Shown one piece after another: positions 45,086 through 51,484 of a stretch of 64,000 nucleotides of DNA; the first letter of the stretch is position 1, and every line of letters starts with the position of its first letter. The notes under the pieces are model-generated. The model searched no databases and was not told the origin of the DNA. It worked only from the letters and a program-made list of their open reading frames with translations. A program made the translations under genes and the position numbers. Source of the DNA: Escherichia coli (GTDB lineage Bacteria; Pseudomonadota; Gammaproteobacteria; Enterobacterales; Enterobacteriaceae). The stretch lies in the NCBI RefSeq assembly GCF_001677475.2, contig NZ_CP015229.1; one strand, 5' to 3'.

Positions 45086-45102
45086 TCCTTAAGTAGATAG
45101 TT

Positions 45103-45135
45103 AAAAAGCGAAACACAATGTGTTTCGCTTTTTTT
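45103..45135. terminator. Bidirectional rho-independent terminator shared by fabF and the convergent fimbrial operon
   Basis: aaaaa-gcgaaacac-aat-gtgtttcgc-ttttttt: perfect stem flanked by an A-run and a T-run. Confidence 0.8.
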
Positions 45136-45143
45136 ACGTCAAC

Positions 45144-45671
45144 TTATTGATAAGTAAACGTAAACTGCACAACAGTATGGAATTCACCTGCCGTGACCGT
45201 ACCGGTAGGTGTATACATCCGTGCAGCAAGTGGGAAGGTCGCTTTTCTACTGGCCTGGTCGACGTTTACCGTCATTTTACCATTCGGGCTAATTTCCGTT
45301 ATGTGGTCATCCGTCATAATCTGCAGCGCCATCCCGGTGGCATCCCCAAGTGTATTCGCGAACTTCGTCTGGTCAACAAGATCGCTTTCCCCGGTAAACA
45401 ACGCTGTAACACTGCTTGTTGATGCAGGGCAAGAAGATAAATTCAGACTAAAGTTCTGCCACTCACTGGTATGGCCGACCGTGTCGTAATTAACGGCTCG
45501 CGCCTGCTCAAACCTGACAGTTTGATCCTTCGTTTGTGTGTCTATGACACATGCTGATGCTACCACCGTGCCATTAATGTTAATATCAGCCGCTTGGGCA
45601 GAGTGAAATGCACATAAAGGCCAGAGCGTTACCAGTAAGGTAAAAATTGTGGCACTTCGTTGAGTAATCAT
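45144..45671 (-). CDS. Fimbrial minor subunit (FimA-family pilin), distal gene of the accessory operon
   Basis: 175 aa; signal peptide; Cys pair (ASACV...SSCP); C-terminal strand ...VQFTFTYQ typical of chaperone-usher pilins. Confidence 0.75.
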   Translation of the reverse strand: MITQRSATIFTLLVTLWPLCAFHSAQAADININGTVVASACVIDTQTKDQTVRFEQARAVNYDTVGHTSEWQNFSLNLSSCPASTSSVTALFTGESDLVDQTKFANTLGDATGMALQIMTDDHITEISPNGKMTVNVDQASRKATFPLAARMYTPTGTVTAGEFHTVVQFTFTYQ

Positions 45672-45685
45672 GGCGCTAGCACCTG

Positions 45686-46210
45686 TTACTGATAAGTAAA
45701 TGTTGCCTGAACCAGGCCGGTGATTGAACCAGGCATCACATTTCCTTTCGATACAGCCCGCGTACGAAGCTGAAGGTCATAGGCGTGAGAACCAGGAATA
45801 GGGGTATTATTGATTGATGAACCATTACCCAACGTTGTAGAACCATCCTGCGTAGTGAGCTCAAGAGAGAGGTTAGTTGCTGAACCAGTATTGGCGTAGT
45901 TTGTGGCAATATCACCGTCCGGCGTACCAGAGAAAGCGACGCTAAAGCTGGAGGTTGAGAGTGGGCAATTGGTTAATTGCAAAGAGAAGTCTTTCCAGGT
46001 GGATGCGCTTCCCGCAGCCGAAAGAGAATCCGCCTGAATATTATCGCCAATATTTACATTCACGGCACTATTCCCACCATTAACGACGCACGGAGATGCC
46101 AGTACTAATCCATTAATATTGATATCTACCGCATTAACGGAGGAAGCCCCCAGAAGACTGCTGGCGATAACAAATATTATAAACTTACGCTTCCATATTA
46201 TATTCATCAT
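45686..46210 (-). CDS. Fimbrial minor subunit (FimA-family pilin), paralogue of the distal gene
   Basis: 174 aa; signal peptide; shares VDININGLVLASPCVV motif with the 45144..45671 product; C-terminus ...VQATFTYQ. Confidence 0.75.
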   Translation of the reverse strand: MMNIIWKRKFIIFVIASSLLGASSVNAVDININGLVLASPCVVNGGNSAVNVNIGDNIQADSLSAAGSASTWKDFSLQLTNCPLSTSSFSVAFSGTPDGDIATNYANTGSATNLSLELTTQDGSTTLGNGSSINNTPIPGSHAYDLQLRTRAVSKGNVMPGSITGLVQATFTYQ

Positions 46211-46216
46211 TTTTCC

Positions 46217-47212
46217 TTAATTATATTGTACAGTAAATTGCAATGCGGATTTTACCTCGCCGGTGGTTATGTTATTAACATCGTCAATGTAATAAGCTAC
46301 TTTATATTCGGGTATTGTATAATCACCTGAGCCGATATAATTCAATGCAAAGTTATTGTTAAACTGATCGAATCCGCTTCCATCGGGGTTTTGAAATTGC
46401 ACATATACGCCTTGCGCATAACCGGTTCCGGTCTCACCGTTCATCACGCCATCCACCGAGCCGTGAGTTCCGTATAAGGCGCTAAATTTGTAAGAGATAC
46501 CCGTAATTGCGCCCGGACAATTTGTTAATGTTATTGTAGGTATTGGCGTAGCCAGTTGTGCCCCACTAACTGCATTACCGCCATAAAGTGTTGTAAGGTT
46601 CACTTCTTTTGGAGCATTTATTATGCATGGCGTCATGGTAGGCTGCGAAGAAACTCCTGAGCGTGCAAGAAATGATTTATCCGAATAAGTGCTTCCCGGC
46701 GGGTTGTGATAATTTAATGTGACGTCAGGAACAGTGACAAGAGGTCCTGGCGGTATCTGCTCTGTAAGACGAACTAATTCATACTTGATGTGTAGGTAAC
46801 CACTCTTGCTTAAACCTTCCGGGAAAGTCAGCGTGTGAGGTGCTGCTTTCGCCAAATTTGGTGTGGTATCTGTTGGGGTTGAAAAATTGAGTTGATATGC
46901 AATGCCAATACCTGGATTGCTAGTTTGATATATGGTTGCTCCGTCGCCCGTTGTTCCGACCACCGTCCCATTTACTGTAAGATCGGCATATGCACTGCCA
47001 GAACCTCCGGACGCGATATTGATCCAATAAAATTTATTCCAGTCATCAAACCAGGTTGTTCCACCTACACTCGTTGGTATGCTCCACGTTGAAAAATCAT
47101 GAGGGTAAGTGACTACCTGTGCAGTATCAGTCTGAAATTGCGATGCTGTTGTTGTTAACGGCAGTGATGCAATGCCTGAGATAAGAAAGATGATTACCCT
47201 TTGTTTATTCAT
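46217..47212 (-). CDS. Putative fimbrial tip adhesin (N-terminal receptor-binding domain plus C-terminal pilin domain)
   Basis: ORF 46217..47257; start set at MNKQRVIIFLISGIASLPL (RBS gagga upstream); about 331 aa, twice pilin length; C-terminal half has pilin Cys pair (CIINAPK...TNCPG) and terminal ...LQFTVQYN; sits directly after the usher gene. Confidence 0.65.
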   Translation of the reverse strand: MNKQRVIIFLISGIASLPLTTTASQFQTDTAQVVTYPHDFSTWSIPTSVGGTTWFDDWNKFYWINIASGGSGSAYADLTVNGTVVGTTGDGATIYQTSNPGIGIAYQLNFSTPTDTTPNLAKAAPHTLTFPEGLSKSGYLHIKYELVRLTEQIPPGPLVTVPDVTLNYHNPPGSTYSDKSFLARSGVSSQPTMTPCIINAPKEVNLTTLYGGNAVSGAQLATPIPTITLTNCPGAITGISYKFSALYGTHGSVDGVMNGETGTGYAQGVYVQFQNPDGSGFDQFNNNFALNYIGSGDYTIPEYKVAYYIDDVNNITTGEVKSALQFTVQYN

Positions 47213-49814: not shown

Positions 49815-49843
49815 TACACATCCTTATGCAGTTAAATGGCGTC

Positions 49844-50521
49844 TTACAAAGAAGCGTTGTGTACGTCGCCTGCTGCACCGTAATCACTGATGATTGTCCA
49901 GCTTACATTTCCTGTTGTGTTGGCTGGAATTTGAAATGTCGCACTACTCATAGGAGCAACATATGTGGCATCAGGTAATGCTTTTCCGCCAATCTTGACC
50001 TGACTGAAGTTCATATAGTAAGCAGTTGGGTTGGTGACAGTGATTTGCTGTCCGCTACGTCGCCAGGTCAAATTTTTCACGACTTGTTCTGGTAATGTGG
50101 ACGAAATCTCATGTGGTCGATAAATCAATTTAATTCGCGTTTTAATGGCAATTTGCAAGGTGTTGACATTTTCCTGCTTTTCAGTTGCAGGTATCGTTTT
50201 AATATTCATCCAGTACATCGTTTCGCGATCTGTCGGCAGATTGCCGCCAGCGCGAATAATGCGCAACGCATTTTCTTCAGTGGCGCCCAGGCGGAACAGA
50301 GGGGGGGTAATAATAAAAGGGGCTTTGGCGTTGGTTTGCGGATCTCCATCGACCCATGATTGAATAAGGTAGGAGGATTTATCCGGATTTTTCAGGTGCA
50401 GAGACGTTTCTTTTTTATCGCCATTATAAATAACTCGTGTTCCTCCAACAATGACACCCGCCTGTGCAACAGAGTTGGATAATAACAATGCAGTAGCAAG
50501 AAAATAAGTCGATAATTTCAT
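49844..50521 (-). CDS. Periplasmic fimbrial chaperone (PapD/FimC family)
   Basis: 225 aa; signal peptide; conserved GTRVIY and YLIQSWV motifs. Confidence 0.9.
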   Translation of the reverse strand: MKLSTYFLATALLLSNSVAQAGVIVGGTRVIYNGDKKETSLHLKNPDKSSYLIQSWVDGDPQTNAKAPFIITPPLFRLGATEENALRIIRAGGNLPTDRETMYWMNIKTIPATEKQENVNTLQIAIKTRIKLIYRPHEISSTLPEQVVKNLTWRRSGQQITVTNPTAYYMNFSQVKIGGKALPDATYVAPMSSATFQIPANTTGNVSWTIISDYGAAGDVHNASL

Positions 50522-50537
50522 CTCAAAAACCTTTAAA

Positions 50538-50564
50538 AGGTAAAACCGAGTAACTCGGTTTTAC
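50538..50564 (-). terminator. Intra-operon stem-loop (likely attenuator) between major pilin and chaperone genes
   Basis: Perfect inverted repeat ggtaaaaccgag-taa-ctcggttttacc followed on the minus strand by ttttaaaggttttt. Confidence 0.55.
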
Positions 50565-50595
50565 CTGACGTAATTATATTAAAATCAGGCGTATC

Positions 50596-51129
50596 TTAGT
50601 TATACGCTAACGTAAAGTTCACAGTACCATTTGCACTACCAACCGCTATGGTATCTTCTGTAGCGATATAACGTGCAAAGAAGTCCAGGTTAGTGTCGCC
50701 AGTGCTATTGAGAGCCGTGCTATCAGATTCAGTACCGAGAGGCAGCACACTACCGGAAGAATTCATGAGCTGAATTGCAACACCTTTTGCTACACCGGTT
50801 GTACCGTAATCAGTAACTTGTAAAGCATCCTGATTGATCTGATCCGGAGTACCATCGTATTTAACAGCAACATTTTTGAGCTCATTCGGGCAATTTTTTA
50901 ATACCAGTGTAAATTTGGTATTTGCAGCAGTAGTCCCAGCCGTAGCGTTAAAAGCTGTTTTAGCAATTGTGCCTAATTTCACTGTCATTGGAGATGACAG
51001 CGTACTGTTAACTTCACAGCCTGATTCAATGATATCTCCAATAAAATTTATTTTACCATCATCTGCAGAGGCGACAGAGCTAAGACCAGCGGTTGTTACT
51101 AAAACCAGAGCGGCTAGTTTGAATTTCAT
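50596..51129 (-). CDS. Major fimbrial subunit (FimA-family pilin)
   Basis: 177 aa; signal peptide MKFKLAALVLVTTAGLSSVASA; Cys pair (SGCEV...KNCPN); C-terminal ...VNFTLAYN; first gene of operon with aagga RBS. Confidence 0.8.
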   Translation of the reverse strand: MKFKLAALVLVTTAGLSSVASADDGKINFIGDIIESGCEVNSTLSSPMTVKLGTIAKTAFNATAGTTAANTKFTLVLKNCPNELKNVAVKYDGTPDQINQDALQVTDYGTTGVAKGVAIQLMNSSGSVLPLGTESDSTALNSTGDTNLDFFARYIATEDTIAVGSANGTVNFTLAYN

Positions 51130-51484
51130 TTACATTATCCTTGAGATTGCAGCAAATATGCTTACTTTGACAGTACTAAGGCACTGCCATCACTCCAGTG
51201 AATTTTAAATTCCTCAGGAAAAAATATAATATTAAAGCACGAAACGTTAAACACCTTATTTTTACTTAAATATGTTTTTAGGCATACTTAATTGATTCGT
51301 ATTGCGTATGATTGGTGGTGAAGTTTGTGAGGATTGCTGGGGGGGTGTACAATCATATTGATGATTTAAATGTGTGCTGTTGTATAAATATCTTTGGGCA
51401 ATCAAAAAGAGGCCAGTGAACAGATAAATTTGAACATAGAAGCTAAAATAATTTACTGTATTTCTTTGTTTATTGGGGAAGTGA
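51130..51484. promoter_or_regulatory. AT-rich divergent control region between the fimbrial operon and pabC
   Basis: 355-bp AT-rich intergenic region upstream of both divergent transcription units; contains a G7 tract at 51339..51345; no promoter motif confirmed. Confidence 0.45.

Follow-up and report, generated by a model that had tools for sequence, protein, structure and literature searches.

Among the described chaperone-usher systems, type 1 fimbriae (FimA-H) combine a FimD-like usher and a FimC-like chaperone with FimG/FimF-like adaptors and a two-domain tip adhesin, the Elf/Ycb operon (elfADCG-ycbUVF) encodes in this order a major pilin, a chaperone, an usher, a large adhesin-like subunit and two minor pilins, and in the Lpf operon the adhesin gene follows the usher gene. 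All of these features recur in a six-gene operon located between fabF and pabC in a 64,000-nucleotide stretch of Escherichia coli DNA (contig NZ_CP015229.1, assembly GCF_001677475.2), here referred to as the window. Based on nucleotide identities and on the positions at which sequence affinity changes, we hypothesize, with a probability of about 0.8, that a strain with an E. coli-type backbone received approximately 7.4 kb from a cryptic-clade Escherichia carrying an E. ruysiae/H605-type allele by homologous recombination, and that the received block encodes a complete gamma-1-type fimbria.

The operon and its closest described relatives

The six open reading frames (ORFs), all intact and all on the minus strand, occupy 45144-51129 (Table 1), and a previous reading made from the bare letters (the sequence-only reading) had located each of them correctly. 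Likewise, it had described fabF and pabC as neighbors in K-12, where indeed a spacer of only 119 bp separates them. The operon, which it called accessory, occurs neither in K-12 nor in any of the 5,426 complete RefSeq E. coli genomes searched, in which the flanks alone match. Outside the block, window and K-12 are collinear from opgC to ycfP, with 98.5-98.7% identity, and the fimbrial block is the sole large difference between them. The proposed gene roles and the quoted motifs are borne out by the translations, NCBIfam and Pfam, the Pfam matches being those precomputed for the corresponding genes of a related locus, L013, with operon DNA 99.9-100% identical to the window's. The usher displays PapC_N, Usher and PapC_C (on a counterpart with 99.9% identical DNA), the chaperone PapD_N and PapD_C (on a 100% identical gene), and the three small subunits Fimbrial. 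The chaperone translation contains GGTRVIY and YLIQSWV, the subunits end in FTFTYQ, ATFTYQ, FTVQYN and FTLAYN, and the pilin subunits show a signal peptide, an N-terminal extension, a conserved disulfide and a C-terminal beta-strand. A PapD-like chaperone with two immunoglobulin-like domains, a full usher, pilins and a two-domain tip adhesin are thus all present, as in classical chaperone-usher systems. No regulator or recombinase gene is linked to the operon among the ORFs of the window, and a second chaperone is also absent, in agreement with the sequence-only reading.

NCBIfam sorts the proteins into three small pilins, a PapD-like chaperone and an usher, every match falling below the equivalog cut-off. 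For the usher, the models PRK15193 (874 bits, cut-off 995), PRK15298 (866), LpfC (853, cut-off 1271), PRK15294 (850) and FimD (742, cut-off 975) are among six that score 735-874 bits; those that can be placed belong to Sti, Lpf, Sth and Fim, which are gamma-1 systems, and the next models reach at most 476 bits, in what is a ranking by score and not a tree. Gamma-1 is the clade that Nuccio and Baumler delimited by usher phylogeny, and it holds the Fim, Lpf, Sti, Sth and Bcf ushers. The chaperone, besides its best match (Table 1), scores 190 bits against LpfB (cut-off 360) and 183 against FimC (cut-off 327), and the LpfA model gives 77 bits for a cut-off of 221. FimD structures can be aligned to the usher from end to end (residues 15-844, 669 bits); its identity is 40.1% to FimD, 39.9% to SfmD and, highest of these three K-12 ushers, 41.7% to ElfC. 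The chaperone shares 43.6% identity with FimC, and the minor pilins E and F share 34% and 35%, respectively, with K-12 FimG.

In spite of the shared gene order, the operon differs from Elf/Ycb in the distance between the ushers, in an adhesin without similarity to ElfG, in the lack of a second chaperone (YcbF) and in its chromosomal site. It differs from type 1 fimbriae in the sub-cut-off scores for FimD and FimC, in the lack of a FimH match and in having neither a recombinase nor switch repeats. The models that score best on the usher and on the chaperone come from Lpf, Sti and Sth (StiB and PRK15295 in the case of the chaperone), but the LpfA, LpfB and LpfC models all remain below cut-off and LpfD is not detected by sequence. 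In contrast to F17 and Ucl, neither usher nor chaperone is F17-type, and no F17-G-like adhesin is recognized at the sequence level. Accordingly, of the F17/Elf-like order suggested by the sequence-only reading, the likeness to Elf stands, minus the second chaperone, while that to F17 fails for the machinery and is retained only for the predicted fold of the receptor-binding domain. Its reluctance to assign a named type was justified by the sub-cut-off matches, by usher identities of 40-42% to FimD, SfmD and ElfC and by an adhesin matching none of FimH, SfmH and ElfG. The operon is therefore an unnamed member of a well-known kind of chaperone-usher system, not a new kind, and its proteins place it, as far as sequence comparison can tell, as a distinct type inside the Fim/Lpf/Sti/Sth-like group rather than as a copy of a characterized system.

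Its nearest relatives are likewise unnamed. Operons with the same site, orientation and gene order are found in Salmonella enterica subsp. salamae and arizonae, Klebsiella oxytoca, Kluyvera georgiana and Pluralibacter, with identities to the window of 68-72% for the usher, 62-68% for the chaperone, 52-68% for the major pilin and 40-55% for the adhesin, so that the alleles are deeply diverged. The Salmonella fimbrial catalogues hold no name or function linkable to fabF-pabC operons and no location-based name, the 38-type catalogue of E. coli fimbriae mentions neither fabF nor pabC in its text and supplements, and a literature search for a fimbrial operon at fabF/pabC found no paper describing the locus. 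Papers on the cryptic clades mention diverged fimbrial loci, though not this one. EFER_1138, the 'archaic' cluster that Wurpel et al. reported as conserved in E. fergusonii and Salmonella and absent from E. coli, was considered and rejected, as the supplementary table assigns it to the sigma clade.

Origin of the fimbrial block

In the left backbone (rne to the 5' part of fabF) the window is 99.2% identical to K-12 and 95.9-96.3% identical to four cryptic-clade loci (L016, L017, L020 and L022), and in the right backbone (yceG-tmk) the values are 98.9% and 93.7%, respectively. In the operon, by contrast, the identity of the window rises to 99.0-99.4% with the same four loci, and it is 98.8% with L019, a sister of theirs. 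Between L019 and the other cryptic loci the operon diverges by 1.2-1.6%, on the order of the 2.0-2.2% found for the backbone, and the window allele groups with them; together with the absence of the operon from the complete E. coli genomes, this speaks for a transfer out of the cryptic clade and into the strain of the window. Since an operon this close to the cryptic-clade allele is embedded in backbones that are 4-6% diverged, the block was most likely acquired by allelic exchange and not by insertion. The usher and PabC of L016 are identical to proteins named 'E. coli H605', and an adhesin and an usher labelled E. ruysiae share 98.8% and 99.6% identity, respectively, with those of the window.

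The breakpoints were located with informative sites that separate K-12 from five cryptic-clade loci. On the left side, E. coli-type sites reach to about 44,940, interrupted at 44,764-44,854 by a donor-type patch, and the sites from 45,007 on are donor-type, which places the breakpoint between 44764 and 45007; the last ~80-320 bp of fabF carry donor-type sites, and FabF ends in KRV in the window and in KKI in K-12. On the right side the sites are donor-type at 51,816-51,916 and at 52,108-52,317, between which lies a patch of E. coli type (51,929-52,099), and they are E. coli-type from 52,318, so that the breakpoint at 52317/52318 falls within the first ~20 nt of yceG/mltG. The imported block consequently comprises the 3' tip of fabF, the six fimbrial genes, pabC and the first bases of yceG/mltG.

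Integration of a genomic island into the fabF-pabC spacer, either site-specific or transpositional, would be in line with the lower GC content (guanine plus cytosine) of the block, 0.34-0.48 against 0.50-0.57 in the flanks, and with the presence/absence polymorphism relative to K-12. Nevertheless, we regard it as very improbable, as neither the junctions nor the block contain an integrase, a transposase, an insertion sequence, a transfer RNA (tRNA) gene or a flanking direct repeat, the divergent block runs into both flanking genes, and site and orientation are conserved across genera. The sequence-only reading had described the operon as inserted between fabF and pabC, a description that is not supported if it is taken to mean an island that landed in the spacer: mobility genes, tRNA genes and repeats are lacking, the same operon family occupies the site in at least five other enterobacterial taxa, and a near-identical cryptic-clade allele that includes the 3' end of fabF and pabC points to homologous allelic exchange. 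The interval it had given is right for the ORF block but too short, as the region divergent from K-12 is larger and extends into the 3' end of fabF and into pabC. A sharp switch of affinity within a few kb could also arise if cryptic-clade DNA had been misjoined into, or had contaminated, an E. coli assembly, which is hardly credible in this case: two independent assemblies with the same backbone (L013 and L015) have the same junctions and a block that is 99.8-100% identical, the exact adhesin is found on 43 contigs, and the internal E. coli-type patch is typical of real recombination.

Several points weigh against an exchange with a cryptic clade or against parts of it. K-12 is the sole E. 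coli reference for the breakpoints, and isolated donor-type sites may be changes specific to K-12. The names of the donor-type taxa derive from source labels and exact protein matches and not from whole-genome taxonomy, and the anchoring of recombination in fabF and the pabC core, although probable, is deduced from where divergence starts and stops. The gamma-1 assignment of the usher likewise stems from the ranking of scores and not from an usher tree. On the side of the fimbria, a literature search turned up no expression, piliation or binding data for the operon or its homologues, and promoter-like sites in the spacer upstream of the major pilin gene (51130-51484) are no more numerous than expected by chance. 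Finally, the host itself is an outlier. Since its best match over 23.8 kb (window 20000-43800: flg, rne and fab genes) among the 5,426 complete E. coli genomes is only 98.7%, it is a deep-branching lineage, poorly represented among complete genomes, and the 'E. coli' host may be a basal lineage such as clade I.

The fabF-pabC site in other genomes

Homologous six-gene operons lie at fabF-pabC, in the same orientation, in subspecies salamae and arizonae of S. enterica, K. oxytoca, Kluyvera, Pluralibacter and several non-coli Escherichia lineages, and all 10 of the contexts shown for an identical FabF contain a six-gene operon at this site. When species-representative genomes were scanned, five loci outside Escherichia and none within it came up; this absence carries no weight, because Escherichia loci known from other look-ups were missed. 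Proteins identical to those of the window operon are recorded in assemblies labelled E. coli, E. ruysiae, Escherichia sp. 93.0816, Escherichia sp. MR and H605. When the complete E. coli genomes were searched at low stringency with the nucleotide sequence of the usher gene, no match exceeded 71% identity or covered more than 20% of the gene, and the best matches fell in the invertase-linked operon described below. A very divergent second allele occupies the same site in CP025979.1 (L014:10310-16263; also L032:233-4103), which we take to be E. marmotae; its adhesin and usher are 48% and 70% identical to those of the window, and although its backbone is ~95% identical to the window, its operon allele lies as far from the window's as do the alleles of other genera.

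The occupation of the site in many genera and Escherichia lineages is also what would be expected if the operon were ancestral to E. coli and the cryptic clades, kept in the present strain and deleted in mainstream E. coli. In addition, two loci with an E. coli-type backbone (L018:10302-17453 and L021:10301-17452) carry an operon allele 94.4% identical to the window and to the cryptic-clade alleles, about the divergence of the E. coli and cryptic backbones; their right breakpoint lies inside pabC, the 3' part of which is 97.1% identical to K-12, and this allele is either such a vertical relic or the product of a second, independent introgression. For the window, vertical descent is nevertheless unlikely. 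Its allele is far closer to the cryptic loci than the flanking backbone is, the identity matrices point to a more recent coalescence of the window and cryptic alleles than of the flanking core genes, and the donor-type sites end sharply at the right breakpoint. Furthermore, the K-12 spacer and pabC 5' end bear no deletion scar and have no nucleotide homology to any operon-bearing allele, nor the spacer any to 51130-51484, and a simple deletion was on this basis rejected as the origin of the K-12 state. The K-12-type empty arrangement is also found in a non-coli Escherichia genome, with identities of 90.4% in the spacer, 85.7% in the pabC 5' end and 91.6% in mltG-holB, and its pabC 5' end can be aligned to that of an operon-less Citrobacter-like genome (the loci compared are L031:7640-9810 and L033:3-2026). 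Because the empty haplotype is shared with that Escherichia genome at a backbone-like divergence, the empty state appears to be old, and the occupied state appears to be old as well.

Introgression from a cryptic clade, our preferred explanation for the window, would have left its mark on pabC. K-12 homology ends 9 bp before the stop codon of fabF and resumes at nucleotide ~187 of pabC, and residues 1-110 of PabC (window 51485-51814) are 55% identical to K-12, compared to 91% for the remainder. Across 15 loci the C-terminal part of PabC follows the species (86-99% within Escherichia, 91% between S. salamae and S. arizonae), whereas the N-terminal part sorts by fimbrial allele, with 55-67% identity between the Escherichia allele classes and 64% between the two Salmonella subspecies. 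The exact PabC protein of the window co-occurs with the operon. A search with the 120 N-terminal residues of PabC returned only partial proteins of at most 67% identity and identified no donor outside Escherichia. In what is the simplest mechanism, fabF, still ~88% identical in nucleotides when genera are compared, and the conserved pabC core probably serve as anchors for homologous recombination, whole alleles being swapped together with the 5' third of pabC. The operon of the window would then be one allele of an old and highly polymorphic fimbrial locus situated between fabF and the conserved pabC core in many Enterobacteriaceae. A broader and more tentative proposal, to which we give somewhat less than even odds, is that fabF-pabC is a family-wide 'adhesin cassette' locus at which diverged fimbrial alleles and old empty alleles, with adhesins of a receptor specificity undescribed so far, are exchanged by recombination in fabF and the pabC core.

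Members of the operon family also occur at other sites. In Superficieibacter sp. HKU1 (L004:4118-10057) the operon lies between ybaL-like and gsk-like genes, and in Rahnella bonaserana (L011:4541-9924), again at another site, a minor pilin gene precedes the adhesin gene. The nearest usher in complete E. coli, with 48.5% amino acid identity, is found in E. coli 2012C-4502 and C11 (L024:3002-9761 and L025:3002-9761), in a five-gene fimbrial operon located beside a tyrosine-type DNA invertase and among genes of an integrating-conjugative element.

The predicted fimbria and its adhesin

The block is predicted to encode a complete classical chaperone-usher fimbria, for which assembly order, expression and adhesion are deduced from the genes. 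Sec would export the subunits, the PapD-like chaperone would take them up, and the FimD-like usher would polymerize them by donor-strand exchange, with the adhesin at the tip, the two FimG/FimF-like adaptors next and the rod of major pilin last.

The adhesin comprises a signal peptide (residues ~1-23), a receptor-binding domain (~24-192) and a pilin domain (~193-331) that lacks an N-terminal extension, as is characteristic of two-domain tip adhesins. Its ORF could open at 47257, but relatives of 330-332 amino acids favor 47212. No similarity to FimH, SfmH or ElfG is detectable, and no relative was found among the Protein Data Bank sequences. A weak profile match of the receptor-binding domain to that of Abp2D (E-value 0.017) and a faint MrkD-like domain signal are available, and modeling suggests a beta-sandwich receptor-binding domain of the structural class of GafD, UclD, AtfE, MrkD, LpfD and Abp1D. 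The lectin domains of F17-G/GafD and UclD share only 10-13% sequence identity with the adhesin and give no sequence-level match, and their ligand specificity is not transferable to it. Two adhesin variants, P0033 and P0037, differ from that of the window at 19 residues in otherwise ~99% identical operons; 11-13 of these residues fall in the receptor-binding domain (15-17 when the signal peptide is included) and 2-4 in the pilin domain, a clustering that suggests that the binding half either recombines locally or is under diversifying selection.

Many chaperone-usher operons of E. coli are silent under laboratory conditions, and a silent, decaying operon without present function would also be compatible with the AT-rich upstream region and with the absence of a dedicated linked regulator. 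Decay is, however, rather unlikely. All six ORFs are full length compared to their homologues, both here and in most related loci, and dN/dS (the ratio of nonsynonymous to synonymous substitution rates), calculated between the window allele and the 94.4%-identical allele, is 0.08-0.20 across the six genes, with 0.08 for the usher, 0.09 for minor pilin E, 0.12 for the major pilin and 0.20 for minor pilin F. Since these ratios are so low, the genes of the operon are maintained by purifying selection, and the changes concentrated in the binding half of some adhesin variants suggest selection on binding. One older assembly (L022, GCA_000208585.2) has split fabH and pabC genes and a major pilin cut short at 130 amino acids (5822-6772, 15754-16146 and 16645-17453), which probably reflects sequencing frameshifts rather than pseudogenes.

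The operon is bordered by two non-coding elements (Table 1). The terminator-like hairpin, missed by a consensus terminator scan and confirmed through folding, has energies of -19.0 and -17.5 kcal/mol on the two strands (z -6.2 and -4.6), with none of 200 shuffled sequences folding as well, and of the 10 related Escherichia loci compared, 6 share the spacer that contains it at 100% identity. Upstream of the major pilin gene, where a fimS-like invertible switch was sought, the only inverted repeats are weak and at chance level.

Table 1. Coordinates of the features in the 64,000-nucleotide window (aa, amino acids; ACP, acyl carrier protein; sRNA, small RNA; UTR, untranslated region).
Feature	Position	Strand	Remarks
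Imported donor-type block, ~7.4 kb	44764..52317		Informative sites and identity matrices
fabF (beta-ketoacyl-ACP synthase II)	43844..45085	+	Putative left recombination anchor
Terminator-like bidirectional intrinsic hairpin, 14-bp stem, T runs on both strands	45103..45135		Between the convergent fabF and minor pilin F gene
Minor pilin F, FimG/FimF-like adaptor subunit, 175 aa	45144..45671	-	FimG model 109 bits, cut-off 220
Minor pilin E, FimG-like adaptor subunit, 174 aa	45686..46210	-	FimG model 108 bits
Two-domain tip adhesin, 331 aa	46217..47212	-	
Outer-membrane usher, FimD-like, 857 aa	47241..49814	-	Gamma-1 type by score ranking
PapD-like periplasmic chaperone, 225 aa	49844..50521	-	PRK15295 266 bits, cut-off 309
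Major pilin, 177 aa	50596..51129	-	Translation, NCBIfam, Pfam Fimbrial on the 100% identical L013 gene
AT-rich divergent regulatory spacer, 355 bp	51130..51484		GC 0.34-0.39; major pilin gene to pabC
Candidate promoters in the divergent spacer	51250-51223; 51325-51353	-; +	Promoter-like site scan
pabC (aminodeoxychorismate lyase), mosaic	51485..52294	+	Within the exchanged block
Expected Rfam elements: ES036 sRNA; PyrC leader; rne 5' UTR element; SraB	5377-5419; 14550-14599; 36297-36633; 38494-38662		

The Rfam scan found no element inside the fimbrial block, and a PADLOC scan for defense systems gave zero matches. Two intergenic regions differ in length from K-12: flgF-flgG (window 26514-26607) measures ~92 nt compared to ~125 nt in K-12, and the ycfP-ndh spacer (~63904-63913) has ~60 nt fewer.

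Implications for fimbrial typing and gene flow

The fimbrial type encoded between fabF and pabC is missing from the 38-type E. coli catalogue; it adds a candidate colonization factor and, among practical consequences that are modest overall, merits an entry of its own in fimbrial typing schemes. The mosaic PabC, whose N-terminal third drops to only 55% identity between strains that are ~99% identical in the flanking core genes, is the signature of the exchange and calls for caution in the use of pabC as a phylogenetic marker. If the adhesin cassette proposal were true, the 5' third of pabC would be carried along at each swap, in a manner similar to O-antigen or flagellin loci. The exchange inferred here is a sign that genes have passed from cryptic Escherichia clades into E. 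coli-like strains, and would exemplify how a complete adhesin operon may move between species without mobile-element genes, with conserved housekeeping sequences serving as recombination arms.

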